A stretch of 64,000 bases of DNA, from contig NC_086097.1 of the NCBI RefSeq assembly GCF_963921235.1, positions 16,616,001-16,680,000 on the forward strand, given 5' to 3'. The first letter of the stretch is position 1. Every line of letters begins with the position of its first letter. Under the pieces are notes generated by a model, which was given only the letters and a program-made list of their open reading frames with translations, was not told the DNA's origin and made no database searches. Below, piece by piece: positions 130 through 55,800 of the stretch. The position numbers and the translations under genes were made by a program. This stretch comes from Mobula hypostoma (Eukaryota).

Positions 130-620
130 TTGTGCTAAAAAGCAGAAAGCAGGATTTCCTGGTTGCCAACCATTTTAATTCCAATCCCCATTCCAGCATG
201 TTGGTCCATGGCCTCGTCTGCTGCCATGATGAGGCCACCCTCAGGATGGAGGAGCAACATCTCATATTCTGTCTGGATAGCCTCCAACCTGATGGCATAA
301 ACATCTATTTGTCCAACTTCTGGTAATTTTCCTCCCTCCCCCTTCTCTCTTTCAATTTCCCACTCTGGCCACCACTCTTAAATCTTTTCCGCACCTGCCT
401 ATCACATCTACGCACTACTCTTGCTTCTTTCCTTTCTTCTGTGGCCCACTCTCCTGTCCTATCAAAATTGCTCTTCTCCAGCCCTTTACCAACCATCTTC
501 TAGACTCTTATTTCATCGTTCTCCCCCACTCACCTGGCTTTACTCATCACCTTCGAGCTCGTAATCCTTCCTCTTCTCCCCCCCCCACCACTTTATTCTG
601 GTTTCTTTCTCCTTACTTCC
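130..620 (+). mobile_element. Penelope-like (Neptune-type) element 3' fragment: end of GIY-YIG region plus pyrimidine-rich pLTR
   Basis: ORF 120-326 has 'VANHFNS...ATLRMEEQHLIFCLDSLQPDGINI', continuing the PLE ORF seen at 16545-17290 ('LATHFNS'). Confidence 0.75.
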
Positions 621-1959
621 CACTATACCCCTAATTTTGGTGTCATCCACAAATTTGCCAATCCTTTGCTAGTCTATTAATCATCCAGCTCCGCCCCTCT
701 CTGATTTTCTGCATTAATATTGGGCTTGATTCCTATCCATTTTTAATTCATGTTTATTCTTGCTGAGCTCAATGGTATGACCCAGCATAATGCTCTTTCA
801 TGTCTTGCTATTTTGTTTGAAGTATATCAAGTCTATAAATGGGCTATTATTGAGCCGTTGTCCAGCTCAGTTTCCTCTTGCTTCCAAACAAGTTTTTATC
901 CATACTATCCTGCCCACCATTGAGAGTATCTATCTGAGGCGCCACCTCAAATCGGCAGCATCTATCAGCAATGGTCTCCACCATCCAGATCACGCCATCT
1001 TCTTGCATTCGCTACTATCAAAACTTCAAGTCCCACACCACCAAATTCAAACACAGCTTCCTTTCAACCATTCAGTTCTTGAACTAACCTGCACAATTCT
1101 GATCAATACCTTACTGGAGCAACATTATGAACATTTTGCATTACAATTATACTCAGAAAACTCTGATGGTGTGACATCAGACAACACTCAACTCTTGAAA
1201 GAGACACCAAAGATGAACAGAAGAAACAATTCAAGACAGTTCTTAAATCCTCCTTGAAATACTCAACCTCTCCACTTACTTATGGAAACAATTCTTAATG
1301 TTGCAGAATGTTTCAATAAAGTTGCTAACCTTATCTTTTCTGTTTGACAAGTTCAGTTAACTACAGTCTTCAAACACTACCACCCTTCTAGATTATGATT
1401 CATTTTATTTCATAATACAGTATATCAAACAGTAAAAGAACAAACTTGCATTTCCCAATCAAATAAAGTCACCAGTCAATCACAGGATTGTCTGACATCA
1501 TGGTTGAAGGGCCTGTTCCTATACTGAACTGTCTAATATTCTATGTTCCAAGCTGACGCTATAGCTGCACTGGAAGAACATGTCGAGTTTGGATTCAGAG
1601 GTCTTCAGCAATATTTTAGACAGGAGGTGACAAAGCAAGACCAGTGATACCTAGCTAAGTCAAGATTATAAGCAATTTGGAAAAGAATCAACAGATCACG
1701 GCTCTCCCATACACCTGCTAACTTTTCTCTCTTGCAAACTTGAAGCTGTTATCTAAATAGCTTTGCAAATAAGTGGTGTATTTCATAGATAGTATGTGCT
1801 GGCAGTAATACTTATCTGGGGAGGTGGAGTGCCAATCAAGCAAACTTTTTTGAGGATTCTTGGGAGTTGCAATCATCAGAGTAGAGATCACACTCTGAGA
1901 TTCTTCCAATGGAAAGGTAATGAAGTGCCAAGAGGTCAGTCACTCACTTCTAATCATCG

Positions 1960-2310
1960 CAATATAGGAAGGATATGATTGCCCTGGAGAGGGTGCAGGG
2001 AAGATTCCTCAGGCTATTGCCTGGAGTGCAGCTTCTCACTTATAAGGGACTGAACAGGCTTAGTTTATTTTTCTAATGAAGCAAAGATGGTCGAAGTGAC
2101 CTGAGAAACATATATAAAATTTTGAGGGGCATAGAATGGAACATTGTCCCATGATGGGGCTATCTAAGAAGAGAGCAAGTTTAAGATGAGACAGGATCTG
2201 AGGGAGTATTCGTTCACACAGAATGCTGGTTAGAGTCTGGGCTGCACTGCCTGAAGGGATGGCGGAGGTAAATACCTCATTGATATTTAGGCATTTAGGC
2301 AAGTACTTGA
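1960..2310 (+). mobile_element. Degraded CR1 RT 3' fragment
   Basis: 'GCCCTGGAGAGGGTGCAG...TTCACACAGA..GGTTAGAGTCTGG..GCACTGCCTG' resembles the CR1 ORF2 C-terminal region of other copies in the window. Confidence 0.65.
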
Positions 2311-2893
2311 ATCAGGACTTAAACCCAGGGAAACTTTACAACTCAAAGGTAAAAGAGCGAATTATGTTGACAGTCTTTAAGTGTTGCTACTAGGATCTCT
2401 TTGGTTAAAATTATTTTCACATTTAAAGCCTATATTATCATCTATGGACTTAACTATGGAAGAGTATTCACAAGTATGTTACTGTTACTGTCTCACAGCA
2501 TCATAGATTAAAACTCAATCTATATCTCTGGAGCTGCTCACATTGACTTAACACATTCTGCCTGTGATTACGTGGGCTTCCTCCAGGGGCACTTGTTTCA
2601 TCCCACATGCCCAGTCATGCTGGTTGGTATTATTACACATCATCTTAAATTGCCCCTATTATGCTGAATGGGTGGAAGGAGGCTGGTGAATTGTTAATGG
2701 GAAATATGGGCTACTGTACATTGGTATTTGATGGTTGGCACTATCACAGTTGGCCTAACTACCTGTTTCTGTGCTGCAGGACTCTGTGACTCTTAAGCAG
2801 ACTGCAAGGTCCAAATGCAAGAATTGCTCAGGTATCAAATTCCATGTGATAATAGGTCAACACTTCATCCAAATTAATACATATTTTGTATGA

Positions 2894-3180
2894 GGGCACA
2901 GTAGCACAGTGGTTAGCGTAACACTATTACAGCACCTGCTGTAAGTTCAGAGTTCAATTCCTACCACCGCCTGTCAGGAGTTTCTATGTTCTTCCCATGT
3001 CCGAGTGGGTTTCCGAAAGTGCTTCAGTTTCTTATCACAGTCCAAAGATGCAAGATTAGGGTTAGGGAGTTGTGGGCATGGTACATTGGCATCAGAATGT
3101 AGCGACATTTGTGGACTCATTTGATGTGTACGACACATTTCACTGCATATTTCGATGTACATGTGAAAACAAAGCCAATC
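2894..3180 (+). mobile_element. tRNA-derived V-SINE (HE1-like)
   Basis: A-box-like TAGCACAGTGGTTAG, B-box-like AGTTCAATTCC, then V-domain-like 'GGAGTTT.TATGTTCT.CCC.TG.CCG.GTGGGTTTCC...CCAAAGA'; related copies at ~19754, ~26132, ~26630 (minus) and ~31435. Confidence 0.7.
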
Positions 3181-3984
3181 TCATTATACTTACTTGATAA
3201 GAGCCATTTATTGCTTTGGAGTAATCATTCGCCTTTTTGTCACCAGATGCTGTCACAGTGCTTGCTGAAGTTGACTGAAATAGATGAAAAGACATGTTAA
3301 TACAAAAAATTTAGATATTAGAAACAGATTTTCTCTCAGGTACACTTAAATGTGTTAGTTTTAAATTTTAAATCCTTTAAATTTCTTCGAAGGCGTCAAA
3401 GGACAATTTAAACAGAATATACAGAGCACTAAATGCGTATATCCTACAATCCGGAGATATGCTCAAGTCTTTAACATACACCTCCTGTACCTAATAAAGC
3501 AGCCAATGATTGTATATTTTGAAGAAGAATATGAACTCCTTCTTTTCTTGTTGGTCATGGTAACAACTCCCCCCCCCCCCCCACCACACATACACCCCTG
3601 CATTCCAAAGAACGGGCTATCTCTTTTCTCCTAGGGTAAGGAGATCATTACTTAATGGCTCATTTAGGTGTAAGTGAAGAGCAAGAGAAGGTGTGGTAAG
3701 GTGAGGCATATTACTTCAGGCTGATGTGTTGGAGCTGTAGCCCGAAAGGTCTGATGGTATATCTCTGCATTTTCTTTTTGGTCATTTTTGTTGCTTTGCC
3801 ATTTTTGCACTGTAAATATTTTGCACTTTTTCGAAAAGTTTTCCACTTCTGGCACACATAAAAAACCTTTACACTGAAAGGCTACTGTTGCCTGCCTTCT
3901 GATTTTTAAAGTCCATACCTTCATGAAGGCATGAGAGCCTCACCAAAACCCAATGGTGTGCCACACATTCAGAGATAATCCCAC

Positions 3985-4235
3985 TTCTTTTTCTTAAGCC
4001 CATCATCCCTACTGGGGCATAGGCCGCTGACAGCCGCTTACAATGGTCCTCTGTCCTGGACCGCTCTTTCAAGTTCCATGGGGTAGCCTGTCTTATTTCT
4101 TCTAGGGAAGATCCTTCTAATCCCAGAGATCAGGTCTTCAGAGCTTCTGTTGGTATCTTTCTGTAGCTTGGATTTTTAAATGGATGGGGTTGCTATCTCC
4201 ATGCCAACCCTCCTTCTTTCACAGCTGGGCTTGGG
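3985..4235 (-). mobile_element. Short RTE-related non-autonomous element
   Basis: Minus-strand end '...TATGCCCCAGTAGGGATGATGGGCTTAAGAAAAAG' resembles an RTE-type 3' terminus; no long ORF. Confidence 0.4.
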
Positions 4236-5772
4236 ACCATCCATGGCAGAGATGGATAACCCTTATGATTTTCTTAAAATAGTTCTAATAGTCCATTTAG
4301 CTGAAGTGTGTTCTCCTCTAAAATTGACCACTTCCAAAAGTATGGCACCACCATGGGTACACTGAGGATTTTTGTGCTCAGGTTTCTACAAGATACGTGA
4401 TTCAGGCTCCAAGCAAGCACCTGAACACCCTGTCCTACAGTCATACCAGGCTGACCAGAGAAGGATGCAGTGCTATACATCAAGAAAGATCATCTCAATC
4501 ATTTATTTCAAATATCACAACATCTCCTGGCTTCAATTTAAATGTAGGTATCATGCTACAAGTGACCATTCTGTTTTCCTCATGCTGAAGGACTTTTGAA
4601 AGCAGTAAATCAAAATCCAAGGGTCTAAGTACTCTGGGTAGGGTCTACACTGTCCATCACCAAAAATTTCTCAGTAGTCTAACCACTATATAAGATGGCC
4701 AAATGAATAAATCATATAATTACTTGAGGCAGGGAGGAGTTTCTCAGAGTAATCATGCAAACCATGTTCAAGCAATGGTGTTCACAAGATCAATGGCTAT
4801 CAAAGTTCAAAGTAAAATTATTTTCAAAGTACATATATGTCACCATATACAACCCTGAGATTTGTTTTCTTGTGGGCATACACAGTGAATCCAAGAAACA
4901 ATAGAATCAGTCAAAGACCACATCCAACAGGATGGACCAACAATAAATATTAAGAACATGAGATGAAGAGTCCTTGAAAATGAGCCCATAGATTTAGGGA
5001 ACTATTCAGTAATGGGGAGAGTGAAGTTATCCCTTCTGGTTCAAGAGCCTGATGGCTGAGGGGAAACAACTGTTCCTGAACCTGGTGGTGCAGGTCCTGA
5101 CGCTCCAGTACTTTCTTCCTAAAGGCAGCAGCGAGAAGATAGCATGGCCTGGGTGGAGGGGGGTCGTTGATGATGGATGCTGCTTTCCTGCGATAGTTTT
5201 CTAAGTAGATTACCTCAATGGCGGGGAGGACTTAGCCTGTGATGGACTGGGCCACATCGATAACTTTTTGTACATTTTCCATACAAGGGCAATGGTATTT
5301 TCATACCATGCCATGATACAACAGTTAATAAACTTTCCACCTCAATCTACAGAAGTTTGTTAAGATTTTAGGTGTCAAGCCAAATCTTCGCAAACTTCTG
5401 TGCTAAGCCAAAACAGATCCACTAAAAAGATAATATCGAGGAATTTAAAGTTGCTGATCCCTCGATGAGAACTGGCTCATGGATCTCTGGTTTCCTCCTC
5501 CTAAGTCAATAATCATCTCCTTGGTCTTGCTGACATTGAGTGAGATGTTGCTGTTGTGGCACCACTCAGTCAGATTTTCTGTCTCCCTCCTATATGCTGG
5601 TTCGTCACCACCTCTGATTCGGCCACCAACAGTAGTGCTGTCAACAAACTTAAATATGGCATTGCAGCTCAGCTTAGTCTCACAGTCATAAGTATAAAGC
5701 AAGCAGAACAGTAAGCACACAGCCTTGTGGTGCACCTGTGCTGATATTGCCAATCCAAACTGACTGGGGTCT

Positions 5773-12124: not shown

Positions 12125-13556
12125 CTTAAGAAGGGGGCAAGGAAGCAAAAAGGAAATTATAGACCTGTTAGCTTGACATTGGTGGTTGGGAAGTTGTTGG
12201 GAGTTGATTGTCAAGGATGAGGTTACGGAGTACCTGGAGGCATATGACAAGATAGGCAGAACTAAGCATGGTTTCCTTAAAGGAAAATCCTGCCTGACCT
12301 ATTACAATTTTTTGAGGAAATTACAAGTAGGCTAGACAAGGGAGATGCAAAAGTGGATGTTGTTTATTTGGATTTTCAGAAGGCATTTGACAAGGTGCCA
12401 CACATGAGGCTGCTTAACAAGATAAGAGCCCATGGAATTACGGAGAAGTTACATACGTGGATAGAGCGTTGGATGATTGGCAGGAAACAGAGAGTGGGAA
12501 TAAAGCGATCCTATTCTGGTTGGCTGCCGGTTACCAGTGGTGTTCCACAGGGGCCCGTGTTGAGGCCGCTTCTTTTTACGTTGTACATCAACGATTTGGA
12601 TTTTGGAATAGATGTCTTTGTCGTTAAATTTGCTGATGATATAAAGATAGGTGGAGGGGCCGGTAGTGCTGAGGAAACAGAGAGTCAGCAGAGAGACTTG
12701 GATAGATTGGGAGAATGGGCAAAGAAGCGGCAAATGAAATACAATGTTGCAAAGTGTATGGTTATGCACTTTGGCAGAAGAAATAAACGAGCAGACTATT
12801 ATTTAAATGGGGAAAGAATTCAAAGTTCTGAAATGCAATGGGACTTGGGAATCTTCGTGCAGGATACCCTTAAGGTTAACCTCCAGGTTGAGTCAGTGGT
12901 GAAGGCGGCAAATGCAATGCTGGCATGTATTTCTAGAGGAATAGAGTATAGGAGCAGGGATGTGATGTTGAGGCTCTATAAGGCACTGGTAAGACCTCAC
13001 TTGGAGTACTGTGGGCAGTTTTGGTTTCCTTGTTTAAGAAAGGATGTGGTGACGTTGCAGAGGGTTCAGAGAAGAGTCACTAGAATGATTAAGGGAATGA
13101 GAGGGTTAACATATGAGGAACGTTTGACCGCTCTTGGACTGTATTCCTTGGAGTTTAGAAGAATGAGGGGGGACCTCATAGAAACATTTCGTATGTTGAA
13201 AGGCATGGACAGAGTGGATGTGGCAAAATTGTTTCCCATGGTGGGGGAGTCTAGTACGAGAGGGCATGACTTAAGGATTGAAGGGCGCCCATTCAGAACA
13301 GAGACTCGAAGAAATTTTTTTAGCCAGAGGGTGGTGAATCTATGGAATTTGTTGCCACAGGCAGCAGTGGAGGCCAAGTCACTGGGTGTAATTAAGGCAG
13401 AGATTGTTAGGTATCTGAGTAGCCAGGGCATCAAGGGTTATGGTGAGAAGGTGGGGGAGTGGGACTAAATGGGAGAATGGATCAGCTCATGATAAAATGG
13501 CAGAGCAGACTCGATGGGCCGAATGGCCGACTTCTGCTGCTTTGTCTTACGGTCTA
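12125..13556 (+). mobile_element. 5'-truncated CR1 LINE with an uninterrupted 371-aa RT/C-terminal ORF (12353-13468)
   Basis: 'YLDFQKAFDKVPH', 'SGVPQG', 'KFADD', 'LYKALVRPHLEYC', 'RRNFFSQRVVNLWN'; CR1 3' UTR follows. Confidence 0.92.
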
Positions 13557-15060: not shown

Positions 15061-16504
15061 GAACAATAGTGATCAATGAAACATTAGCCAAGGTCTTAAT
15101 TCTGGAACTCCCATATAGCAACACTGTAGAAATACCCTCACCAAAATGACTACAGTAACTCAGGCCAGCAAACTTCAATAGCTTTTCTGGGGTAATTAGA
15201 CCTGGCTTGCCAGTAAAGTCCAAATCCCATAAACAAATAAAATTCTTGTAACTCAGAAATGGCAAGTTTTCCTAAAGGCTGGATCTGAGGAAGTTACATC
15301 ACCTACTGACATGGAAAATGTATTTCAAGTAGCCATCAAAATAAGACTGACCTTTATAAAACAGAAAATCAGATGTTCAAGGATAATTCTAAAACAGATA
15401 AACCATTCATGAAGATATACTGCGATTAATCAATTAGCATTTAACAGTGCTGTGTTCATTTTGGAGAAAAAATTACCCAAACTAAAACAAAACACTTCTA
15501 CAATAGGCTATGATTACATGAAGCAGAGAAAAAAAAGACTAACTGATCCTTACACCAGCTCTATCTTTAAGTGACATGCTTAGACACTAAACACAATTCT
15601 TCACTTAGGCTGACAATCCAGTTTTAGCAGCCAGGATAGACATACTGGCAGCTTGGATACAGATACTGAACCAACACCATCTCCCTTGAAATTTATTACT
15701 ACAAACAGAGCCTTCACATATTGCCAAGTTCACAGTCTCAACTTTCTGTATGAGCAATGTTCAATGCTGTGGATAACCCTACAATATCCATTATCGAACT
15801 TTGCGGCAATTTGCCCCACTGATATGAACTGAATACCAAAGCTTTGGGCCTACTCCGGGGATCTGGTTCTAAGGACTCAACTTTGTTCAGAGTGCTGTTG
15901 TTGCTGCTATTGTTTATATGATTTGTGTTTATTTCCCTTTCTCTGTGGGCAGAGGGGCATTGGTCTTTTTTTAAATTGGGTTCTTTTGAGTTCCTTACTT
16001 TGCAACTACCTGTAAGCAAACAAATTTTGAAGTTGTCTAATTTAAACATTCTTTAATAAATGCACTTTGAAACTTTGAAATACCAAATGTCACGTATGAT
16101 CAAATCACAGCACTTACAAACAAAAGAGTACAAAATTTAGTTTAATAACTGGCATGCACAGTGTGGGATTGCCAATCTTAACACACAGCTTCATTTGATT
16201 TGAAATAATACTTAACTTAGCTGAACAATTGCCACATGAATGGTTGCAATGTTTAGCTCCAGGTAGCTTTAAAAATATTAGAAGGCCAAGATAAATTCAA
16301 TACATACAGGATCCCATGTTTTCACACATTGAATTTCTTAACAGTCACCAACAACAAACCTGCCCTTGAGAATAAAACCTTGAAATCTTAAACAGCAAAA
16401 TAGAAAGTTCCACAACTTCCTACACCCAGAAAGTAAGAAAAAGCACCAATAGCAACCGCAGCAAAACCATCAAGCTTAGATGTATCAAGAACTGCCTTCC
16501 CCAA

Positions 16505-17300
16505 TCTCACTGCCTCTATCTCCGGAGACAGCTTATCCACCAATGTGTATTATAAACCAACGGACTTTCATTGCCACCTGGACTATACCTCGTCCCACCC
16601 TGCTTCTTATAAAGACACCACCCCCATCTCTCAATTCCTCCGTCTCCACTGCATCTGCTCTCATAATGAGGCTTTTCATTGCAGAACAAAGGAGATGTCC
16701 TCCTTTTTCAAAGAAAGCGGCTTCCCTTCCTCCACCATCAACACTGCTCTCAACCGCATCTCTTCTATTTCACATCTATCTGCTCTTACCCCATCCTCCC
16801 AACACCCTACCTGGGATAGGAGTCCTCTTGTTTTCATCCACCACCCCACTTGCCTCCGCATCCAGCACATAATTCTCCCAAACTTCCGCCTCCTCCAACT
16901 GGATCCCACCACTAAACCCATCTTCCCCCCACCCCCGCACTTTCTGCTTTCCGCAGGGATTGTTCCCTACATGATTCCCTTGTCCATTCGTCCCCTCTCG
17001 ACTGATCTCCCTCCTTGCACTTATCCTTGCAAGTGGAACAAGTGCTACACCTGCCCCTACAACTCCTCCCTCACTACCATTCAGGATCCCAAACAGTCCT
17101 TCCAGGTGAGGCAACACTTCACCTGTGAGTCCGTTGGCATCATATACTGTGTTCGGTGCTCCCAGTATGGCCTCCTGTATATTGGTGAGACCCAGCGTCG
17201 ATTGGGAGACCGCTTCACCGAACATCAATGCTCCGTCCACCAGAACAAGCGAGATTTCCCATTGGCCACCCATTTTAATTCACTTCCCATTCTGATATGT
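16505..17300 (+). mobile_element. Penelope-like element (Neptune-type): RT thumb, Cys-rich linker and GIY-YIG endonuclease
   Basis: ORF 16545-17357: 'YYKPTD..LDYTSSHP', 'SQFLRL..ICS', 'CKWNKCYTC', 'IIYCVRCSQYGLLYIGETQRRLGDRFTEH'. Confidence 0.9.
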
Positions 17301-17420: not shown

Positions 17421-17993
17421 CGTTAAGTGAAGAAGTTTCCTTTCATGTTCTTCTTAAACTTTTAACCTTTCACCTTTTACCCATGACCTCTGGTTGTAGT
17501 CCCATACAACCTCAGTGGAAAAAGCATACTTGCATTTACCCTATCTATACCTTTCATAATTTTGTATACCTTTATCAAATCTCCTCTCAATCTTCTACAT
17601 TCGCTTTCTCGTACTCTAAATTCCACTTCTCTCCATTATTCTGTTGTCACTTCTGCATTTCTTTCTCCACTAAAATCTTTGCACCATACTACTGCTTTGC
17701 ACTAGCTGTTGTATTTATTACTACCTATACTGCTTATTCTGTGAGCAAATAATTTCATTGAACCCTGAAATATGACAAAATAACCTGTCCTAGAATAGTT
17801 GTTTTAGCTGTGTAACAAAATAACCATCCTTTTGTTACATGAACCAGAAAAAAGACTCCATCTAACTCAGACTGAAGCCTCCACAAACCACATTTACATC
17901 TCGCACAGAATACACAGAAGTATGGATTTATTGCAAGATTAATAAACTTATTGGTTTGAAATATTGTGGAATATTGGTAGCTTGTGTTGGCTA

Positions 17994-18325
17994 TTCGGAA
18001 GTTTGTTGATTGCCGAGCTTGGCTAAATGTTTTCAAACATTTCAGCTCCGATCGAGAAGACATCGTCAGTGTGCAATTAAGGGTGTTGTCTCCTCAGAAT
18101 GTTGGCTTATATACTCCTCCGGGGTCTGAATGGATATTAATTAGACATCCTGATTTAGTTGGCTGGTTCGATCATGACGTCTAATCAATATCCATTCAGA
18201 GGACTATATAAACCGGCATTCTGAAGAGACAACACTTTCAAATGTGCACTGATGATGGCTTCCTGATTGGAGCCAAAACGTATGCAAACATTTTGCCAAG
18301 CTAAACGATCAACCAAACTTCTAAA
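17994..18325. mobile_element. Palindromic Penelope (Poseidon-like) pLTR pair with a hammerhead motif in each arm
   Basis: ~150-bp imperfect inverted arms; right arm TGCA-CTGATGA-T-GGCTTC..GGAGCC-AAAACGTA-TGCA; left arm (minus) CTGACGA...GAAATGTT; TATATA box precedes each motif. Confidence 0.75.
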
Positions 18326-19753
18326 TTTATTGTTGATGTGAAGAATCAGCAGCTGGAAATTCCTAAATGCACACATTGTTACAGCAGTTTGGATTTTAAG
18401 AAAAAGCTAATTCTTCATATAAAAATGACATTCAAGAAACTCTTAAATAAGCACACTGATTTAAAAAAATGGAGAGCTATGGAGGAGGTAAGCATTAGAT
18501 TAACTTTAGTGTAGGTTAAAAGATGGGCACATCGTGGGCCAAAGGACCTGCATTGCGCTGTACTGTTCTATGGTCTGTAATAAATCCCTAACAATTACAC
18601 CAAGCAAATGTTACAGAAACATGTAAAGAACAAGATGAGGTTTTTTTTGAGAGAAATTACTTTGCACAGACATATAAGAAGTACATAACACTTTTGAACC
18701 AGATTATTACAAATGATTGATTATTATAGGTACATACAGCTTAACGATTACAGTTCAAGGAACAAATTACTAAATACAGATCAGTCTGGAATAGCATCAT
18801 GACTATATAGATTTCTTCCGTGCATAGAAAAGCTTCCAAAATTATTAATTCATCCAAATATCATATGGATATTTTAGTTCCCTCTAACTCCACTCGCAAA
18901 AGTATCTATTCTCTCTAGATCCTTTCCAGTTCACTTCTTCAACATCACCAACCCTAACATTTTTTATGCAAGCATGAAAAATGCAACATCTGATCGTTCA
19001 CCTCCTGCCATTCTTTGATCCACAGCTTCAAAAGCACTTTTTTTAATAGGAGAAGGATGAAAGGTTCATCAATTTGAAACACTCTGTTCACTCTCTAAAG
19101 GTCAAGAATCAACTTTATTTGCCATATACATTTACATATATTAGGATCTTCTTGTGTGTCTTGGCACAATATGCAACAAAAACATTCAATTATCAAGAAT
19201 TATTAAAAATAAGTTTGAGGCTTAAGTATGGATATGGAATAAATATGTATAAATACATAAATACCAGCATTTGTTTAAGATGTAAACAGCAATATAAAAT
19301 GGGGGGGGGGGGGGAGGGATGGTAGACAGGCTAACTAAAATGATTGATCAGATTAACTGCCTGGGGGAAGAAACTGTTAAAATGGCACACAGTTTTTGTT
19401 TTAATTGCCCTATGCTGCCTGACCAATTATCTCTGGCATTTTGTTTAAAATTTCCGAAGCCTGCAAGATTAGTTTTCCAATTAACAGCAATTGAAATGTA
19501 ATTCTAATTTAATACATAGAGCACTCAAGAGTGCAATTTCCTTTATACTGAGACAAGTTTAGATGTACCATTGCTCTAAAGGGACAATTACACTGCTCTT
19601 TTCATGATTTCAAGACATGAAGTACTCTGAAAGTGCAAGTGTCATTATAGCAATGACAGCCACAGAAACAGAAAGATTTACCCGAAACAGCAAAGATCCA
19701 GTGAACAGCAATATGATGATGACCAGGTAATTCTGTGGTTTTAATTGAGAATT

Positions 19754-24864: not shown

Positions 24865-25015
24865 TTCTCCCCTTCCTTTCCAGTCCTGAAGAAGGGTCTC
24901 GCCCTGAATCGACAACTGTTTTAGCTTTTCCATAGATGTTGCCTGGCCTACTGAGTTCCTCCAGCATTTTGTGTGTGTGTTACTTTGGATTTGCAGCATC
25001 TGCAGACTTTCTCAT
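24865..25015 (+). mobile_element. Penelope pLTR 3' end with degenerate hammerhead motif
   Basis: CAGTC-CTGAAGA-AGGGTCTCGCCCT-GAATC.. followed by the conserved 'GCTGAGTTCCTCCAGCATTTTGTGTG' segment repeated many times in the window. Confidence 0.7.
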
Positions 25016-27169
25016 AATAATTAGAATCTCAGTGCTGAGGATACTGGCCTGGGATGAGACAGCATCTATGGAAGAGTACAGTTAATGTTTCAGGCCGAGA
25101 CCCTTCATTTGTTTTTTACTGTTGATCTGCTTACTCTTCCAGGACATCTGGAGGATTCTGCTGTATTCTGAATGGTTGCTTCACTGTCTTGTACAGAGAT
25201 ACCGATGCACAAGACTGGAAAGGCTGCAGTGGGTTGTAAACTAGCCTCCCCAGCATTGAGGGCCTCCACAAAAGGCAGTGCAAAAAAGGCGGCATTCATC
25301 ATTAAGGACCCTTGTCATCCAGGACATTCCTCTTTTCATTACTACCACCAGGGAGATGGTACAGGAGCCTAAAGACACACACTCAACATTTTAGAAATAA
25401 CTTCTATTCCCCCCCCCCATCAGATTTCTGAACAGCCCATGAACACTACTCCCCTTTTTACACTAATTATTTTTTATATATTCTTTTTGTATTTATAGCA
25501 CTTTCTATGTATTGCACTGTACTGCTGCCATGAAACGACAAATTTCAGTGATAATAAACCTGATTCTGATACGTAACCTCTCATTCAACTTGTCTGGATC
25601 ACTGTGAGATCCTCCTCACACCTCATATTCCCACCCAGAAAGAAATATCACATTAAGTTATCTCATCTAATCATTGATAGAGATTATGAACGTCGGGAGG
25701 CCAAGCTGTATAGTAAATTATTATTAGTAATTACCTAAAATACCAAAAAAACTCCTCCTTCCTATCTGTCCACCAATTTTCAATCTATGTTAGTATACTA
25801 CTGCTAGTTGTACGTGGTTTAATTTTGCAGGACAAAGTTCAAAGTTAAATTTATTATCAGAGTACATACATGTCAAATCTATACAATAGTAAACATGATC
25901 AATGGACAACAAACTGCAAATGTGGATATAAACAGTTATAAACAATAAGCATGAAATAACAAGACAAAAGAATCCTTAAATGAGTGTAGTTATCCCCTTT
26001 TGTTCAAGGGCCTGATGGTTAAGGGGTATTAACTGTTCTTGAACCTGGTGTGCAAGTCCTGAGGCAGCTGTACCTTCTATTTGATGGCAGCAGTGAGAAA
26101 AGAGCATGACCAAATCTAAATGCATTAATCGATGGCATGGTAGTGGAATATTATTAAAGCACCAGCAACCAGGGTTCAATTACACTGCTATCTGTAAAGA
26201 GTTTGTATGTCCTCTCCGTGACCGTGTAGGGGTTTCCTCCCACATTCCAAAGAGGTATAGATTAATTGGTCTCATGGGCTTCTGAGGCTGGAAGGGCCTG
26301 TTACTGTGTTGTATCTCCAAATTAAAAAGATCTGTTGTTTTTGTCTTATATATTCTATCAGCTACATTGCCAAATCAACTCTGGTAAATTTGTCAAATAC
26401 ATTTTCCTTTTCATAAGTCCACCCTGACTTTATCTATATTTTAATATTGTCTATATTTAAAATCTATTTAATATTTTAAGAATTTTCTTTTTATATATCT
26501 ATTTTGCACCACCTGCCTGCTCCTCATGGTGGTCATCCATTTGTCTGGCTCAAACTATAGTGTGAGTACCTTCCTGAAACTCTGAACTATAATATTGCTG
26601 TATGCGCCACAGTGAGTCCAATGATGCATGCCACCACAGTAACAGGGCCCTTCCAGCCCACCGAGCCCATACTGCTCAATTACACCCATGTGACCAACTA
26701 AACCACTAACTCACAAGTCTTTGTAATGTGTGAGGAAACCCACAAGGTCACAGGGAAAAATTCTTACAATGATGGATTTGAACCCAGGTTGCTACCACTG
26801 TAATAGCATTACACCAACTGCTACACCAGCATGCCGCGCAGTGTGCTCACATCCTTTACAAAAGATTCTAGCATTCCCTCACTACTGATTTTAGGCTAAA
26901 CTGAATGTAGTATCTGCTGTTTGCTCTCCCTCCCTTTCCTCAAGTAAGTGACCAATATCTATTCCATGCCCAGACTCATACATACGATTATTTTGACCCT
27001 ATCTCATTTGGTTTTTACAAACAAGAGAAAATCTGCAAATGACAGAAATCTAAGCAACACACACAAAATGCTGGAGGAACTCAGCAGGCCAGGCAGCATC
27101 TATGGAAGAGTACAGATGACGTTTTGGGCCAAGACCCATCATCTGGTTTTTACTTTTGAACTGTGTAGA

Positions 27170-32004: not shown

Positions 32005-32427
32005 CTGTAAAGCCACGGCGGAGTAATCTGGATGTTGTTGAGTGGATTGGCTACTCTGGGTGAGTTGGCTCGGGGCATTGCTGGTGTCCCAAATGTTCGG
32101 TGGAGGTTGTTGCAGATGAGGTGGTAAAGGTGGCGGTGGTATTGACGGTGGTGGTTGGTGCTGATGGGCAGGATACTGCAAGACTGACTGCAACTGCTGC
32201 TGGTGCATTTGCTGCAACTGCTGCATCTGCTGGAGATGCTGCTCCCTTAGTGTCTGGAAGTTAGACGTTAAACCGGTACTAGGGACCGGCGGGGGTACGG
32301 TGGTGGGACCAACAACGAGCCCCGGGGCCGGCACACGCGGCGCAGGAAGGAGCGGCGGCTGAGCAGCTCCGCCATAGTATGGAAGGTGCGCCCCTCCCCC
32401 ACCATACCGACCCCATGACGGATACAT
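32005..32427 (-). CDS. YLPM1: YLP motif-containing protein 1, first coding exon (141 codons, phase-0 donor)
   Basis: Translation MYPSWGRYGG...FQTLREQHLQQMQQLQQMHQQQLQSVLQ...PPPPLPP resembles the recalled vertebrate YLPM1 N-terminus (MYPNWGRYGG...FREQHLAQLQQLQQMHQKQMQCVLQ); ends CAG|GTGAGA; lies in a CpG island. Confidence 0.9.
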
Positions 32428-37391: not shown

Positions 37392-39638
37392 AGAGTGACA
37401 TAGTTAATTCAGAAACAAAGGTTCTGAACTTAGAGGGGTAACTTTGAAGGTATGAGACGTGAATTAGCTAAGATAGACTGGCAAATGACACTTAAAGGAT
37501 TGACGGTGGATATGCAATGGCAAGCATTTAAAGGTTGCATGGGTGAACTACAACAATTGTTCATCCCAATTTGGCAAAAGAATAAATCAAGGAAGGTAGT
37601 GCACCTGTGGCTGACAAGAGAAATTAGGGATAGTATCAATTCCAAAGAAGAAGCATACAAATTAGCCAGAGAAAGTGGCTCACCTGAGGACTGGGAGAAA
37701 TTCAGAGTTCAGCAGAGGAGGACAAAGGGCTTAATTAGGAAGGGGAAAAAAGATTATGAGAGAAAACTGGCAGGGAACATAAAAACGGACTGTAAAAGCT
37801 TTTATAGATATGTAAAAAGGAAAAGACTGGTAAAAACAAATGTAGGTCCCCTGCAGACAGAAACAGGTGAATTGATTATGGGGAGCAAGGACATGGCAGA
37901 CCAATTGAATAGTTACTTTGGTTCTGTCTTCACTAAGGAGGACATAAATAATCTTCCAGAAATAGTAAGGGACAGAGGGTCCAGTGGGATGGAGGAACTG
38001 AGCGAAATACATGTTAGTAGGGAAGTGGTGTTAGGTAAATTGAAGGGATTGAAGGCAGATAAATCCCCAGGGCCAGATGGTCTGCATCCTAGAGTGCTTA
38101 AAGAAGTAGCCCAAGAAATAGTGGATGCATTAGTGATAATTTTTCAAAACTCGTTAGATTCTGGACTAGTTCCTGAGGATTGGAGGGTGGCTAATGTAAC
38201 CCCACGTTTTAAAAAAGGAGGGAGGGAGAAACCGGGGAATTATAGACCGGTTAGCCTAATGTCGGTGGTGGGGAAACTGCTGGAGTCAGTTATCAAGGAT
38301 GTGATAACAGCACATTTGGAAAGCGGTGAAATGATCGGACCAAGTCAGCATGGATTTGTGAAAGGAAAATCATGTCTGACGAATCTCATAGAATTTTTTG
38401 AGGATGTAACTAGTAGAGCGGATAGGGGAGAACCAGTGGATGTGGTATATTTGGATTTTCAAAAGGCTTTTGACAAGGTCCCACACAGGAGATTAGTGTG
38501 CAAACTTAAAGCACACGGTATTGGGGGTAAGGTATTGGTGTGGGTGGAGAATTGGTTAGCAGACAGGAAGCAAAGAGTGGGAATAAACGGGACCTTTTCA
38601 GAATGGCAGGCGGTGACTAGTGGGGTACCGCAAGGCTCAGTGCTGGGACCCCAGTTGTTTACAATATATATTAATGACTTGGATGAGGGAATTAAATGCA
38701 GCATCTCCAAGTTTGCGGATGACACGAAGCTGGGTGACAGTGTTAGCAGTGAGGAGGATGCTAAGAGGATGCAGGGTGACTTGGATAGGTTGGGTGAGTG
38801 GGCAAATTCATGGCAGATGCAATTTAATGTGGATAAATGTGAAGTTATCCACTTTGGTGGCAAAAATAGGAAAACAGATTATTATCTGAATGGTGGCCGA
38901 TTAGGAAAAGGGGAGGGGCAATGAGACCTGGGTGTCATTATACACCAGTCATTGAAAGTGGGCATGCAGGTACAGCAGGCGGTGAAAAAGGCGAATGGTA
39001 TGCTGGCATTTATAGCGAGAGGATTCGAGTACAGGAGCAGGGAGGTACTACTGCAGTTGTACAAGGCCTTGGTGAGACCACACCTGGAGTATTGTGTGCA
39101 GTTTTGGTCCCCTAATCTGAGGAAAGACATCTTTGCCATAGAGGGAGTACAAAGAAGGTTCACCAGATTGATTCCTGGGATGGCGGGACTTTCATATGAA
39201 GAAAGACTGGATGAATTGGGCTTGTACTCGTTGGAATTTAGAAGATTGAGGGGGGATCTGATTGAAACGTATAAGATCCTAAAGGGATTGGACAGGCTAC
39301 ATGCAGGAAGATTGTTCCCGATGTTGGGGAAGTCCAGAACGAGGGGTCACAGTTTGAGGATAGAGGGGAAGCCTTTTAGGACCGAGATGAGGAAAAACTT
39401 CTTCACACAGAGAGTGGTGAATCTGTGGAATTCTCTGCCACAGGAAACAGTTGAGGCCAGTTCATTGGCTATATTTAAGAGGGAGTTAGATATGGCCCTT
39501 GTGGCTACGGGGGTCAGGGGGTATGGAGGGAAGGCTGGGGCAGGGTTCTGAGTTGGATGATCAGCCATGATCATAATAAATGGCGGTGCAGGCTCGGGGC
39601 CGAATGGCCTGCTCCTGCACCTATTTTCTATGTTTCTA
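37392..39638 (+). mobile_element. Young 5'-truncated CR1 (HER1-like); ORF2 intact except for one TGA at 38922-38924
   Basis: 490-aa and 199-aa in-frame ORFs with 'KSPGPDG', 'NYRPVSL', 'GVPQGS', 'KFADD'; TGATG duplication at both flanks; splits a Rex1-like 3' fragment. Confidence 0.95.
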
Positions 39639-47094: not shown

Positions 47095-47500
47095 CCGGAG
47101 AAATCGGCCGTAATGAAACATTGCATTCTCAATGGCCATAGGATTGACACAAAACTACTGTACCATGCCATTGGCTTTTGGGACCGCTTAGTGAAGGAAG
47201 CCATTGAAATAAAACTAAAGGAAAAGAACTCGAACAAAGATGAATGTCTCACACTTAGTAAGAACTGGAATTCAATTGCAAATAAGGTGAGACAGCGGAA
47301 ACCTGGTTGTTTGAGGACTAACCAGTCAGGAGGGAGAGATGGCAGGGGTATAAATATCACTGGACTAGACATGTCTTGGCATCATCCCTGATGAAGATGG
47401 CAGAGTTTGTCATTGAAACGTTCGTTAAAATCTGTACCTGTACCTGACTGGAAGCATGAGAAGAGTTTATTTATCATAAGCACCAGGAAAGCACTAGATC
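47095..47500 (+). mobile_element. Penelope-like (Poseidon-type) 3' end: GIY-YIG C-terminus plus pLTR
   Basis: 'EKSAVMKHC..NGH...RLVKEAIEIK...NKDE..TLS..W', then TATAAA and a hammerhead motif. Confidence 0.8.
47384..47425 (+). ncRNA. Minimal type-I hammerhead ribozyme motif in PLE pLTR
   Basis: CTGATGA (47388-47394), stem II GATGGCAG/TTGTCATT, GAAACGTT; stem I weak. Confidence 0.6.
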
Positions 47501-48184: not shown

Positions 48185-51100
48185 GTGTAAGTCAGACCGT
48201 GAGGCAGCGGGAGTGTTTAAAAGAGAGCAGATTAACGGAATGGGTGACGTAGCAGTGGGAGACAGAGTAGGAAGGCTTTGGCGAGCAGAGGCTGAGGAAG
48301 AGCTTCACTCCAAGTGAGGTAAGGCCAGGTAAGTTCCTTTAATAAATGTAATTACCTTAAGAGTAGGTAACAGAGGCAGCAGTTAGGGCAGTTGAGTGCT
48401 CCGTTTGCAGGATGTGGGAAGTCAGGGCGAGCACAATCGTCCCTGATGACTACACCTGTGAAAGGTGCATCCAGCTGCAGCTCCTGACAAACCGAGTTAG
48501 GGAACTGGAACTGGAGCTGGAGCTGGATGAAGTTCAGATCATTCGGGAGGCAGAGGCAGAGGCAGAAATAGATAGGAGTTACGGGGAGATAGTCACCCCT
48601 AAGAGTCAGGAGACAGGTAGCTGGGTGACTGTCAGGAGAAGGAAAGGGAATAGACAGAATGAGCAGAGCACCCCTGTGGCCGTTCCCACCAATAATAAGT
48701 ACATCATTTTGGATACCGTTGGTGAGGACGACCTACGAGGGACAAGTTGCAGTGGTTGCGTCTCTGGCACTGAGATGGGACCCTCAACTCAGAAGGGAAG
48801 GAGGGAAAAGAGGAGAGCAGTAGTGATGGGGGATTCGATAGTTAGGGGGACAGATAAGTGGTTCTGTGGAAGAGATCGAGAATCACGGATGGTCTGTTGC
48901 CTCCCTGGTGCCAAGGTCTGCGCTATCTCGGATCGAGTTCTCGGTATTCTCAAGAGGGAGGGTGAGCAGCCGGATGTTGTAGTCCATGTAGGGACCAATG
49001 ACGTGGATAGGAAGAGTGAGGAGGTCCTGAAAGGTGAGTTTAGGGAGTTATACTTTATACTTTATTGTCGCCAAACAATTGGTACTAGAACGTACAATCC
49101 TCACAGCGATATTTGATTCTGTGCTTCCCACTCCCTGGATTACAAATATTAAATATTAAAAACAGTTACAATTAGTAAATATTAAAAATTTAAATTATAA
49201 ATCATAGATAGAAAATAGAAAAATGGAAAGTAAGGTAGTGCAAAAAAAAACCGAGAGGCAGGTCCAGATATTTGGAGGGTACGGCCCAGATCCGGGTCAG
49301 GAGTAACGTATAAATATTCCTGGATTTAATTGCTTCAGGTGTGATAGAATCGGAGGGACAAGAGGAGGAGGTGTTGCATTGCTTGTCAGAGAAAATATTA
49401 CAGAGGTGCTCTGGCAGGACAGATTAGAGGGCTCGTCTAGGGAGGACATTTGGGTGGAATTGAGGAATGGGAAAGGTGTAGTAACACTTATAGGGGTGTA
49501 TTATAGATAACCAAATGGGGAACAAGAATTGGAGGAGCAAATCTGTAACGAAATAGCAGATATTTGCAGTAAACACAAGGTTGTGATTGTGGGAAATTTT
49601 AATTTTCCACACATAGACTGGGAAGCCCATACTGTAAAAGGGCTGGATGGTTTGGAGTTTGTAAAATGTGTGCAGGATAGTTTTTTGTAGCAATACATAG
49701 TGGTACCAACTAGAGAAGGGGCAGTGTTGGATCTCCTGTTAGGGAATGAGATAGGTCAGGTGAGGGAGGTTTGTGTTGGGGAGCACTTCAGGTCCAGTGA
49801 TCACAATGCCATTAGTTTCAATGTAATTATGGAGAAGGATAGGTCGGGACCCAGGGTTAAGATTTTTGATTGGAGAAAGGCTAACGTTAAGGAGATATGA
49901 AAGGATTTAGAAGGAGTGGATTGGGACAATTCTTTTTATGGGAAGGATGTAATAGAGAAATGGAGGTTATTTAAAGGTGATATTTTGAGGGTACAGAATC
50001 TTTATGTTCCTGTTAGGTTGAAAGGAAAGGTTAAGAGTTTGAGAGAGCCATGGTTTTCAAGGGATATTGGAAACATGGTTCGGAAAAAGATAGATATCTA
50101 CAATAAATAAAGGCAGCATAGAGTAAATGAGGTGCTCGAGGAATATAAAGAATGTAAAAATAATCTTTAGAAAGAAATTAGAAAAGCTAAAAGAAGATAT
50201 GAGTTTGCTTTGGCAAGTAAGGTGAAAATAAATCCCAAGGGTTTCTACCGTTATATTAATAGCAAAAGGATAGTGAGGGATAAAATTGGTCCCTTAGAGA
50301 ATCAGAGTGGACAGCTATGTGTGGAGCTAAAAGAGATGGATATTCCGTAGGACCTTGAGGGAAGTTAGTGTGGAAATAGCAGGGGCTCTGACAGAAATAT
50401 TTCAAATGTCATTAGAAACTGGGATGGTGCCGGAGGATTGGCGTATTGCTCATGTTGTTCCATTGCTTAAAAAGGGTTCAAGAGTAAACCTAGCAATTAT
50501 CGGCCTGTGAGTTTGACGTCAGTGGTGGGTAAATTGATGGAAAGTATTCTTAGAGATGGTATATATAATTATCTGGATAGACAGGGTCTGATTAGGAACA
50601 GTCAACATGGATTTGTGCGTGGAAGGTCATGTTTGACAAATCTTATTGAATTTTTTGAAGGGTTTAATAGGAAAGTTGATGAGGGTAAAGCGGTGGATGT
50701 TGTCTATATGGACTTCAGTAAGGCCTTTGACAAGGTTCCACACGGAAGGTTAGTTAGGAAGGTTCAATCATTAGGTATTAATATCAAAGTAGTAAAATTT
50801 ATTCAGCAGTGGCTGGATGGGAGACGCCAGAGAGTAGTGGTGGATAACTGTTTGTCAGATTGGAAGCCGGTGACTAGTGGTGTGCCTCAGGGATCTGTAC
50901 TGGGTCCAACGTTGTTTGTCAGATACATAAATGATCTGGATGATGGGGTGGTAAATTGGGTGAGTAAGTACGCAGATGATACTAAGATAGGTTGAGTTGT
51001 GGATAATGAAGTAGGTTTTCAAAACTTGCAGAGAGATTTAGGCCAGTTAGAAGAGTGGGCTGAAAGATGGCAGATGGAGTTTAATGATGATAAATGTGAA

Positions 51101-51897
51101 GTGCTACATTTTGGTAGGACTAATCAAAATAGGACATACAGGGTAAATAGTAGGGCATTGAGGAATGCAGTAGAACAGAGGGATCTAGGAATAATGGTGC
51201 ATAGTTCCCTGAAGGTGGAATCTCATGTGGATAGGATGGTGAAGAAAGCTTTTGGTATGCTGGCCTTTATAAATCAGAGCATTGAGTATAGGAGTTGGGA
51301 TGTAATGGTGAAATTGTACAAGGCATTGGTGAGGCCAAATTTGGAGTATTGTGTGCAGTTTTGGTCACCGAATTATAGGAAAGATGTCAATAAAATAGAA
51401 AGAGTACAGAGAGGATTTACTGGAATGTTACCTGGATTTCAACACCTGAGTTACAGAGAATGGTTGAACAAGTTGGGTCTTTATTCTTTGGAACGTAGAA
51501 GGTTGAGGGGGGACTTGATAGAGCTATTTAAAATTATGAGGGGGATAGATAGAGTTGACGTGGATAGGCTTTTTCCATTGAGAGTGGGGGAGATTCAAAC
51601 AAGAGGACATGAGTTGAGAGTTAACGGGCTGAAGTTTAGGGGTAACATGAGGGGGAACTTCTTTACTCAGAGAGTGGTAGCTGTGTGGAACGAGCTTCCA
51701 GCAGAAGTGGTTGAGGCAGGTTCGATGTTGTCATTTAAAGTTAAATTGGATAGCTATATGGACAGGAAAGGAATGGAGGGTTATGGGCTGAGTGCAGGTC
51801 GGTGGGACTAGGTGAGAGTAAGAGTTCGGCACGGACTAGAAGGGCCAAGATGGCCTGTTTCCGTGCTGTAATTGTTATATGTTTATATGGTTATATA
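48185..51897 (+). mobile_element. Near full-length CR1: 5' UTR, ORF1 (zinc finger, coiled coil, SGNH esterase) and disrupted ORF2
   Basis: ORF1 'CSVCRMWE...DDYTCERC', 'VMGDSIVRG', 'VHVGTND'; ORF2 fragments with 'KYADDTK'; (TTATATG)n-type tail. Confidence 0.92.
49048..49302 (-). mobile_element. Second copy of the (AAAGTAT)n-tailed LINE 3' end, at the CR1 ORF1/ORF2 junction
   Basis: Matches 45975-46230; CR1 jumps from mid-esterase to mid-endonuclease across it. Confidence 0.75.
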
Positions 51898-52869: not shown

Positions 52870-55800
52870 AATGGGAGCAAATTGGAAGCAAATCAGGATT
52901 GGTAGGTCGCAAAGAAGGAGTATTCTAAAGGCAGGATGACTCAACTGTGACTAACAAGGGATGTCAACGCCAACATAAAAGCAAAGAAAGGGCATATAAT
53001 AGAGCAAAAAATAGTGGGAAGTTAGAGGATTGGAAAACTTTTAAAAACCAACAGAAGACAACTAAAAAAGCTGTAAGTGGGGAAAAGACAAGATATGAAT
53101 GTGAGCTCACCAACGATATCAAAGAGGATACGGAGAAACCTCAGGAGTAGGCCCTTGGAGCCTACACCGCCATTCAGTATGATCATGGCTGATCATCCAA
53201 CTCAGAACCCTGTACCTGCCTTCTCTCCATACCCCCTGATCCCTTTAGCCACATGGCCATATCTAACTCCCTCTTAAATATAGCCAATGAACTGGCCTCA
53301 ACTGTTTCCTGTGGCACAGAATTCCACAGATTCACCACTCTCTGTGTGAAGAAGTTTTTCATCATCTCGGTCCTAAAAGGCTTCCCCTTTATCCTCAAAC
53401 TGTGACCCCTCATTCTGGACTTCCCCTACATCGAGAACAATCTTCTTACATCTAGCCTGTCCAATCCCTTTAGAATTTTATATGTTTCAATAAGATCCCG
53501 CCTCAATCTTCTAAATTCCAGAGAGTATAAGCCTAGTCGATCCAGTCTTTCATCATATGAAAGTTCTGCCATCCCAGGAATCAATCTGGTGAACCTTCTT
53601 TGTACTCCCTCTATGGCAAGAATGTCTTTCCTCAAATTAGGGGACCAAAACTGCACACAATACTCCAGGTGTGGTCTCACCAAGGCCTTGTACAACTGCA
53701 GTAGTACCTCCCTGCTCCTGGACACGAATCCTCTAACTATGAATGCCAGCATACTATTCGCATTTTTCACCGCCTGCTGTACCTGCATGCCCACTTTCAA
53801 TGACTGGTGTACAATGACACTCAGGTCTCGTTGCACCTCCCCTTTTCCTAATCGGCCACCATTCAGATAATAATCTATTTTCCTGCTTTTGCCACCAAAG
53901 TGGATAACCTCACATTTATCCACATTAAATTGCATCTGCCATGAATTTGCCCACTCACCTAACCTATCCAAGTCACCCTGCATCCTCTTAGCATCCTCCT
54001 CACAGCTAACACCGCCGCCCAGCTTCGTGTCATCCGCAAACTTGGAGATGCTGCATTTAATTCCCTCGTTTAAGTCATTTATATATATTGTAAACAACTG
54101 GGGTCCCAGCACTGAGCCTTGCGGTACCCCACTAGTCACTGTCTGCCATTCTGAAAAGGTCCCGTTTATTCCCACTCTTTGCTTCCCGTCTGCTAACCAA
54201 TTCTCTATCCATATCAATACCATACCCCCAATACCATGTGCTTTAAGTTTGCACACTAATCTTCCAGATACCAAACTGTTTTTCAGATATATAAAGACTA
54301 AAAGAGAGGTGAGAGTTGATATTGGAGTGCTGGAAAATGATGCTGGAGAGGTAGTAATGGAGAACAAGGAAATAGCGGATGAACTGAATAAGCATTTTGC
54401 ATCAGTGTTCACTGTGGAAGGCAGTAACAGTATGCTGGAAGTTTGAGAGAACTGGGGGGCAGAAGTGAGTACAGCTGCTGTAACCAGGGAGAAGGTGCTT
54501 GGTAAACTGAAAGGTCTGAAGGCAGGTGTCATCTGGAGCAGATGGACTATATTCCAGGGTTCTGAAAGAGGAAGCTGAAGAGATTATGTAGGCATTAGTA
54601 ATGATCTTTAAAGAAACAATTGATTCTGGCATGGTGGCAGAGGACCGAAAAATTGCAAATGTCGCTCCAATCTTTGAGAAAGGAGGAAGGCAGAAGAAAG
54701 GAAATTATAGGTCTCAGTGTTAAGGATTTGGAGTATTTGGAAGCACATGATAAAATAAGCCAAAGTCAGCATGGCTTCCTTAAGGGAAGATCTTGTCTGA
54801 TGTATTGGAATTCCTTAACAAACTCACAAACAGGAGAATCAGTGGATGTTGTGTACTTGGATTTTCAGAAGGCGGCTGACAAGGTGTCACACATGAGGCT
54901 GCTCAACAAGGTAAAAGCCAATGGTGTTACAGGAAAGATACTAGCATGGATAGAGCATTGGCTGATTGGCATAAGGCAACCTGTAGGAATAAAAGGAGTC
55001 TTTTTTGATTGGACGCTGGTCACTAGTGGTGTTCCGTGTTGGAATCACTTCTTTTTACATTCTATGTCAATGATCTGGATGAAAGAATTGATGGCATTGT
55101 GGCCAACTTTATGGATGAAACAAAGACAGGCAGAAGGGCAGGCATTGTTGAGGGAGCAAGGCGGTTGCAGAAGGACCTAGACAGATTAGAAGAATGGGCA
55201 AAGAAGTGGCAAATGGAATAGTGTTGAGAAATTTATGGTCATGCACTTTGGTAGAAGAAATAAAAGCATAGACTACTTTCTTAACGAGGAAAAAATTCAA
55301 AAATCTGAAGTGCAAAGGGACTTGGGAATCTTTGTGCAGGATTCCCTAAAGGTTCATTTCCAGGTCGAATTGGTGGTGAGGAAATACAAATGCAATGTTA
55401 GCACTCATTTCAAGAGGACTAGAATATAGAAACAAGGAAGTAATGCTGAGGCATTATAAAGTACTACTGAGGTTTCACTTGGAGTATTGTGAGCAATTTT
55501 GGGCCCCTTATTTAAGAAAAGGTGTGCTGACACTGGAGAGGATTTAGAGGAGGTTCACAAGAATGATTCTGGGATTGAAAGGCTAATCATATGAGGGGCA
55601 ATGATTGATGGTTCTGGGCCTACACTCACTGAAATTTAGAAGAATGGGGCCGGGGGGGGCGGTGTCTCATTGAAACCTATCGAATGTTGAAAGGCCTATA
55701 TAGAGTAGATGTGGAGAGGATGTTTGGTATGGTGCAGGAGTCCGGGACCAGAGGATACAACCTCTGAATAATGGGACGTCCGTTTAGAACAGAGATAAAG

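Follow-up and report, generated by a model that had tools for sequence, protein, structure and literature searches.

The hairpin-forming inverted repeat described here is very probably the product of a single old retrotransposition of a Penelope-like element (PLE), truncated at both ends and most like Penelope/Poseidon. It was analysed within 64,000 nucleotides of the Mobula hypostoma genome (contig NC_086097.1 of assembly GCF_963921235.1, positions 16,616,001 to 16,680,000), hereafter the window, in which all positions below are counted. Judged by their sequence features, the arms appear to be copies of the hammerhead-bearing end (pLTR) of a PLE, and their inverted layout appears to be the known partial-pLTR arrangement; this reading is supported by the evidence set out below. 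The unit is a known by-product of PLE insertion rather than a mini-element of a new kind. The Poseidon clade label is given by analogy, from a layout common with the Anolis carolinensis element PAc and not from a reverse transcriptase (RT) tree.

Two inverted copies of one element end form the foldback

The original prediction, made from the letters of the window, was of a palindromic mini-element with a foldback of about 330 bp. This foldback is real. In a blastn comparison of 17900-18420 with the window, 17998-18321 matched its own reverse complement at 74% over 332 columns (E 4.9e-56), and no further copy of the arms was detected elsewhere within the window. The local score between the arms was 167, whereas none of 200 shuffles scored above 48, and the RNA of 17994-18325 folded at -168.8 kcal/mol (z -20.2), which was equalled by 0 of 100 shuffles. 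The outward layout of TATATA and hammerhead that had been read from the letters was likewise found on both arms, in the order TATATA, CTGA-N-GA, one extra T, a 6-bp helix II and GAAAC-GT-H. From the start of TATATA to C3 the distance is 44 nt on each arm (counted from 18205 on the plus strand and from 18113 on the minus strand). The arms differ in 32 of 156 aligned columns, 24 of these differences being transitions (K2P 0.25). Their parts are as follows.

17954-18169, minus strand: main copy of the element 3' end, 216 nt long, 5'-truncated and made up of pLTR and tail (alignment, depth and paralogue ends)
18170-18326, plus strand: inverted second copy, tail-less, with its end at 18321-18326 and with 7 nt deleted after 18198 (alignment; paralogue pieces with 6-8 gaps)
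18156-18169, minus strand: 14-nt unpaired overhang of the left arm, the loop of the hairpin (alignment, public contigs)
18108-18113, minus strand: TATA-like box of the left arm (motif scan)
18205-18210, plus strand: TATA-like box of the right arm (motif scan)
18061-18063, minus strand: ATG opening helix II of the left arm, candidate start of the parent ORF (37-aa remnant P0001), at the same place as in PAc (PMC11167929)
18255-18257, plus strand: ATG opening helix II of the right arm, with a stop at codon 4

The two copies meet at 18169|18170. The palindrome at this junction is imperfect, and no ORF body is left, both copies ending within the pLTR.

The unit is bounded by a candidate target-site duplication

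To define the ends and the spread of the element, we used public contigs of four runs (X4, X5, X9 and X14) aligned to 17560-18760 at 80% likeness. X4, X5 and X14 are DNA-type runs from three organisms, and X9 is, by our guess, RNA; cover in X14 ends at 18625. The survey of these contigs is based on 15 listed of 87 joints and on 32 listed of 13457 pieces. Depth climbs from 14 to hundreds or thousands within the bin 17929-17969 of the public contigs. Among the pieces listed, paralogous pieces begin at 17956-17959, left-arm pieces stop at 18167-18169 and outer right ends fall at 18321-18326. The whole unit is 17954-18326, or 373 bp. Of the edges first proposed, 17994 and 18325, the right one is about correct and is kept, whereas the unit begins some 40 nt further out on the left, at 17954. 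Three features lie at these ends.

17954-17992, minus strand: one-sided tail of 39 nt, or of 44 nt with the end of the right arm set at 18321; the right arm has none (alignment, depth)
17943-17953, unstranded: left copy of a candidate target-site duplication (TSD), 11 bp, AT-rich, including ATT; the 11 bp match with one mismatch and include an exact 6-bp match
18322-18332, unstranded: right copy of the candidate TSD, the first 5 nt of which are also readable as arm end

Over 4000 random boundary pairs, the chance of an 11-bp match with one mismatch was 0.05-0.1%, and that of the exact 6-bp core 1-2%. Because the candidate TSD flanks the entire 17954-18326 unit, it points to one insertion. In run X4 the depth at 17985, within the tail, was 1238 as against 3882 at 18282 in the ribozyme, about a third, suggesting that the tail is optional and carried by part of the copies.

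The arms are repeated and the centre is private

In X4 the depth was 380-4615 over 17929-18338 compared with 14 in the flanks, although depth is no copy number and contigs break at repeats. The majority letter at 18282 was carried by 102 contigs of this run, indicating that the arm is a many-copy repeat. At 18170 the total depth was 11.4 in X4, 0 in X5 and 19.3 in X14, and the junction was bridged by one of the 32 listed pieces (X14, depth 19.3). This piece is taken as the orthologue because it has single-copy depth and runs ungapped across the 7-nt deletion, unlike the paralogues. Eight listed pieces reach the junction and continue beyond it, over 66-357 letters, in sequence that differs from the window. 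At least seven other joints of left arm to right arm, read by eye from 10 rows, have different centres at depths of 5.8-21.2; six of the seven are in X4 and one is common to X4, X5 and X14. Among the pieces and joints listed, truncation points and junctions thus vary from copy to copy, and some of the other centres could be deletions within longer palindromes.

With 18169|18170 at single-copy depth and other centres in other copies, a fixed-centre family is not supported. The original prediction had envisaged copies sharing this centre and had named a single-copy junction as the finding that would speak against them. The junction is indeed at single-copy depth, eight listed pieces diverge at it and at least seven other centres exist, which goes most of the way to ruling that family out. 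The retrozyme-like satellite proposed along with it fares no better, given the private centre, one motif per strand and the lack of a tandem array: no tandem same-strand units were found over the element.

Several further copies and repeats were seen in the same contigs. The joint of 18005 to 18236 marks a further insertion of this family, again head-to-head but differently centred, in organisms A, B and E; its presence in all three DNA-type runs suggests that it, too, is an old fixed copy. A 1388-nt contig of X9 carries 18243-18321 twice, in opposite orientation and with about 150 nt between the copies, which is a hairpin-type arrangement from another locus. The joints 18120-18283 and 18108-18287 appear to centre on a word of about 5 nt that the antisense arm has in common with the region of the sense cleavage site, which may be a case of microhomology at the joint of one locus. 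Fragments of very high-copy repeats (17560-17602 and 18460-18584, with depths of tens to hundreds of thousands) flank the single-copy stretch. The listed pieces of X9 comprise one flank piece and paralogues; this copy is absent from them, and they are uninformative on expression either way.

Both hammerheads are decayed and locked in the hairpin

Each arm carries a minimal type I hammerhead motif.

18033-18073, minus strand: left-arm hammerhead, single-stranded core intact, helix I of 2 bp, GUU triplet, sense to YLPM1
18245-18286, plus strand: right-arm hammerhead, with an intact helix I of 4 bp and an intact helix II of 6 bp, GUA triplet

A minimal-hammerhead descriptor matched 18249-18282 (plus strand) and 18036-18069 (minus strand) with one core mismatch apiece. 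It found 8 sites in the window, compared with a mean of 0.67 per resampled window (n=30), and 4 sites with at most one mismatch, compared with 0 in every one of the 30 resampled windows. A stricter pattern gave 3 matches in the window versus 1.34 expected, neither arm being among them. Rfam, proposed as a check on the motifs, returned no hammerhead for either arm (0 of 8 matches at E<=10 and 0 of 5 at E<=5), a null that says little because the intact motif at 47388 was equally missed.

The right arm proved to be as first described, with stem I TGCA/TGCA, stem II GGCTTC/GGAGCC and the core G12 replaced by A at 18275. The left arm has kept GAAA, as had been noted, but its decay cannot all be called CpG-type, since by a loose rule only 14 of the 32 substitutions between the arms are of this type. 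Helix II of the left arm has a G-U closing pair followed by a U-C mismatch. The dinucleotide C11.1-G12 has decayed oppositely in the two copies, to TG on the left, where G-U closes helix II, and to CA on the right, where G12 is lost. The GUC triplet of the family is lost on both arms, being GUA on the right and GUU on the left. A complete core together with helices I and II in one copy is found in neither arm.

Paralogues were used to reconstruct the family motif, their letters being judged from 40 listed of 232 rows, and G12 being taken from the left arm. The majority letter is C17, at 3661 of 3882 depth at 18282 (94%, X4) and 397 of 483 at 18036, and helix I (at 18033) and the second helix II pair (at 18060) are likewise repaired by majority letters. 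For each hammerhead position at least one of the arms is intact, and the majority letters give GUC, which bears out the earlier proposal that the two-arm consensus is a complete minimal hammerhead. The majority letters and the arms together indicate that the family motif is complete, though both genomic copies are damaged.

Folding predictions give little room to a working ribozyme. In the full transcript of either strand, helices I and II were predicted to form with a probability of 0.000 because each motif pairs with its own antisense copy. Forcing these helices in the full transcripts costs a predicted 32-35 kcal/mol, and either transcript is predicted to hide the ribozyme in a hairpin of -176 kcal/mol. 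For the arms alone, the predicted probability of helix II was 0.17-0.57 on the right and 0.000 on the left. In a YLPM1-sense transcript the antisense arm would be made first, and the hairpin could zip up while the motif is still emerging. PMC4209133 describes no cleavage for single minimal motifs and little for dimers, and minimal hammerheads are reported to depend on a second copy in the same RNA. The present element has one motif per strand, and opposite strands cannot furnish a partner motif on the same RNA. The claim that the transcript of either strand holds a ribozyme is therefore right as to sequence but unsupported as to the ribozyme fold, given a predicted probability of 0.000, one motif per strand and mutations in both. 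The hammerheads here, decayed and locked inside a long hairpin, would be passengers that had served the parent RNA.

The layout is that of truncated PLE insertions

The known traits of PLE insertion are present at this locus, namely an inverted truncated copy, a one-sided tail of 39-44 nt, a TSD, a TATA box, a hammerhead and an ORF start. That PLE pLTRs carry minimal hammerheads and are often accompanied by an inverted partial pLTR had been stated in the original prediction, and this agrees with the descriptions in PMC3846280, PMC8557442 and PMC4209133. For Pen2a, the first of these sources describes an inverted pLTR, a 9-bp TSD, an optional 31-bp tail and a TATA box, with the first ORF codons inside the pLTR, a junction offset of 15 bp and head-to-head as the commonest form; PMC8557442 gives the same insertion scheme. 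The present unit resembles such truncated insertions (Arkhipova et al. 2013; Craig et al. 2021) in its head-to-head copy, an optional tail of 30-40 nt, a TSD in the 8-10-bp range, the TATA box, the first ORF codons and an arm offset of about 15 nt. It differs from them in that the ORF body is gone, the total length is 373 bp and the palindrome at the junction is imperfect.

The hammerheads are of the kind known from metazoan PLEs. In PMC4209133 (Cervera and de la Pena 2014), minimal hammerheads on opposite strands at a distance of 100-700 bp are ascribed to truncated PLEs, and here two opposite-strand motifs lie 180 bp apart. The motifs share with that type the core, the extra base 9/10.1, G10.1-C11.1, a palindromic 15.2-16.2 without loop 3, a helix I of 4 bp and a long helix II. 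Unlike that type, helix II here is 6 bp, G12 is lost on the right, and helices I and II are broken on the left.

The closest parallel by description is PAc, the Poseidon element of Anolis carolinensis (Frangieh et al. 2024). According to PMC11167929, its ORF starts at helix II, 26 bp before the cut. The PAc protein cleaves at ATT and carries out extension on both strands, and its RT has two internal start sites that delimit the tail, one of them at 111-118 nt into the ORF. Here an ATG opens helix II, the cut would lie 28 nt on, the tail ends at ORF nt 110, and the target is AT-rich with ATT inside the TSD. PAc is unlike the present element in being active and tandem, and the likeness drawn here is one of described layout.

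Retrozymes share less with it. As described by Cervera and de la Pena (2020) and Li et al. (2026), metazoan retrozymes are likewise non-coding, of about 300 bp, PLE-related and equipped with a type I hammerhead. Non-LTR retrozymes are, in PMC7229834 and 10.64898/2026.07.22.740005, defined by tandem units with same-strand hammerheads, and their head-to-tail units release a monomer for circularisation, whereas the units here are head-to-head with one motif per strand. Searches of papers gave nothing on the repeat family of the arms, and the passages of PMC5753468 consulted hold nothing on palindromic PLE copies.

The likely course of the insertion would be as follows. The GIY-YIG endonuclease of the parent would open an AT-rich site by one nick in each strand, the two offset by about 11 bp, and the RT would prime from each nick on element RNA. 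Use of an outer start site would give the tailed arm of 216 nt, and use of an inner start site the tail-less arm of about 155 nt. Both cDNAs would abort within about 200 nt and then be joined, and a centre formed from early-stopped cDNAs would be newly created in every insertion. PMC3846280 offers an alternative source of the inversion, namely self-priming on an antisense template. Two-nick priming predicts tail and no-tail ends at two RT starts with freely varying centres, whereas self-priming predicts central palindromes. We infer the former for the present element.

Other origins for the hairpin

The one-off insertion may have had a different parent, a short non-autonomous PLE derivative (a pLTR-only or retrozyme-like RNA) moved in trans. 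This is compatible with most of the preferred explanation, with which it overlaps, and changes the parent alone. Our searches gave no ORF link, and non-autonomous pLTR-related hammerhead repeats are reported in vertebrates including one chondrichthyan (10.64898/2026.07.22.740005); both points would suit such a parent. However, the autonomous PAc likewise has a tail and an ATG at helix II, the paralogues reach up to 357 letters further upstream, and the many truncation points fit a long template. We consider a non-autonomous parent unlikely on balance. The arms might instead have arisen in two steps, from a solo pLTR that was followed by a local inverted duplication or by a second insertion of the same family. 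The K2P of 0.25 between the arms resembles the 15-20% difference of the listed paralogues, and divergence alone thus leaves room for independent arms. A single TSD around both, arms that abut without host sequence between them and the recurrence of the layout at other loci nevertheless make this origin very improbable.

Lower still stands the reading closest to the original prediction, in which the palindrome is itself mobile as a retrozyme-like satellite with a fixed centre and a self-cleaving RNA from each strand. Many-copy arms, frequent head-to-head pairs, a TSD that encloses the whole, and majority letters that repair GUC and two helix positions are all what it would lead one to expect. 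It is contradicted by the single-copy centre with its eight diverging pieces and at least seven other centres, by the missing tandem array and by the single motif per strand, with helices at 0.000 and 32-35 kcal/mol needed to force them; moreover, tandem same-strand units define retrozymes in PMC7229834. We regard it as highly implausible. A long inverted repeat with a TSD could also be a MITE or foldback DNA transposon in which hammerhead-like words occur by accident, yet the ends are asymmetric by about 40 nt, the arms also occur singly elsewhere and the centres vary. The specific traits of minimal hammerheads (the extra base after A9, G10.1-C11.1 and the palindromic ACGT) are, in addition, present above chance, and a DNA transposon is scarcely credible here.

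The insertion probably lies in an intron of YLPM1

The repeat content of the window looks like that of a cartilaginous fish. One exon of a host gene was recognised on the same strand as the left-arm motif.

32005-32427, minus strand: YLPM1-like first coding exon, ending at a GT donor (tblastn; 6 relatives named YLPM1 or with its domain)

The element sits 13.7 kb downstream of this exon, probably within intron 1 of YLPM1; no further YLPM1 exons were detected in the window. One motif had been said to be sense to YLPM1, and this is so for the left-arm motif, the exon being on the minus strand at 32427-32005. Organisms B and E carry the insertion at this position too. In organism E, 23 of 301 letters differ in the element and 12 of 268 in a mostly flanking piece (P 0.16), and in organism B the differences are 1 of 159 letters for one element piece and 11 of 410 for a piece that is mostly flank. 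There is no consistent sign of constraint on the element, E and B pointing opposite ways, and the copy is most likely neutral.

As a single locus, this is a decayed copy of a described kind, and it serves as a compact footprint of PLE insertion. If such stumps were collected across the genome, they could be used to examine how PLEs come by their inverted ends, a question that the papers cited here call unresolved. A bolder scenario is that an ORF-less parent routinely builds hairpins, and that this one, kept in three organisms, is edited or diced, affects the host transcript and has its ribozyme locked by the antisense arm. If true, the genome would have been seeded with many long intronic double-stranded RNAs, and, separately, the set of stumps with paired tail and no-tail ends would record the priming of both target strands from two RT starts; we think this quite improbable.

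Search for the parent frame and other elements in the window

Pfam returned 0 families for the 51-aa frame of the arm. A profile built from three arm translations gave 5 matches, none of them with an RT or GIY-YIG family; three internally repeated proteins and one LysM protein were among these matches, which were rejected as a link to PLEs. An Atlas search with the decayed 37-aa remnant gave no usable match. Pattern scans of metagenomes returned 0 loci and then 19 loci, with 0 among viral contigs. The 19 loci (GC 48-72%) lack the arm anatomy and match at best over 23 nt by blastn (E 0.002), and they were set aside as chance.

Another PLE frame lies 650 bp upstream of the element, at 16437-17300 on the plus strand. 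It has 306 codons running from the RT thumb to GIY-YIG, is cut off in the endonuclease, and is 26-38% identical to five RT/GIY-YIG-type proteins. We considered this PLE, whose own 3' end is missing, as a parent; its DNA is unlike the arms, and the best match of its five relatives to the element has an E of 0.29. With its 3' end lost, it counts as no more than a possible parent.

A second family is represented in the window by five solo decayed minimal hammerheads, at 24886 (plus strand) and at 27118, 31320, 40619 and 52185 (all minus strand). These five pieces share about 90 nt downstream, and two of them differ upstream, as truncated ends would. The 3' end of a third family lies at 47100-47500 on the plus strand, with TATA at 47349 and a hammerhead of intact core at 47388-47422. 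Its open frame looks, as we assume, like a PLE C-terminus; Pfam returned 0 families for 47101-47385. Long RT-like frames are present at 12281-13468, 37434-39551, 50471-51811 and 53426-55180, and these presumably belong to CR1/L2-type LINEs.
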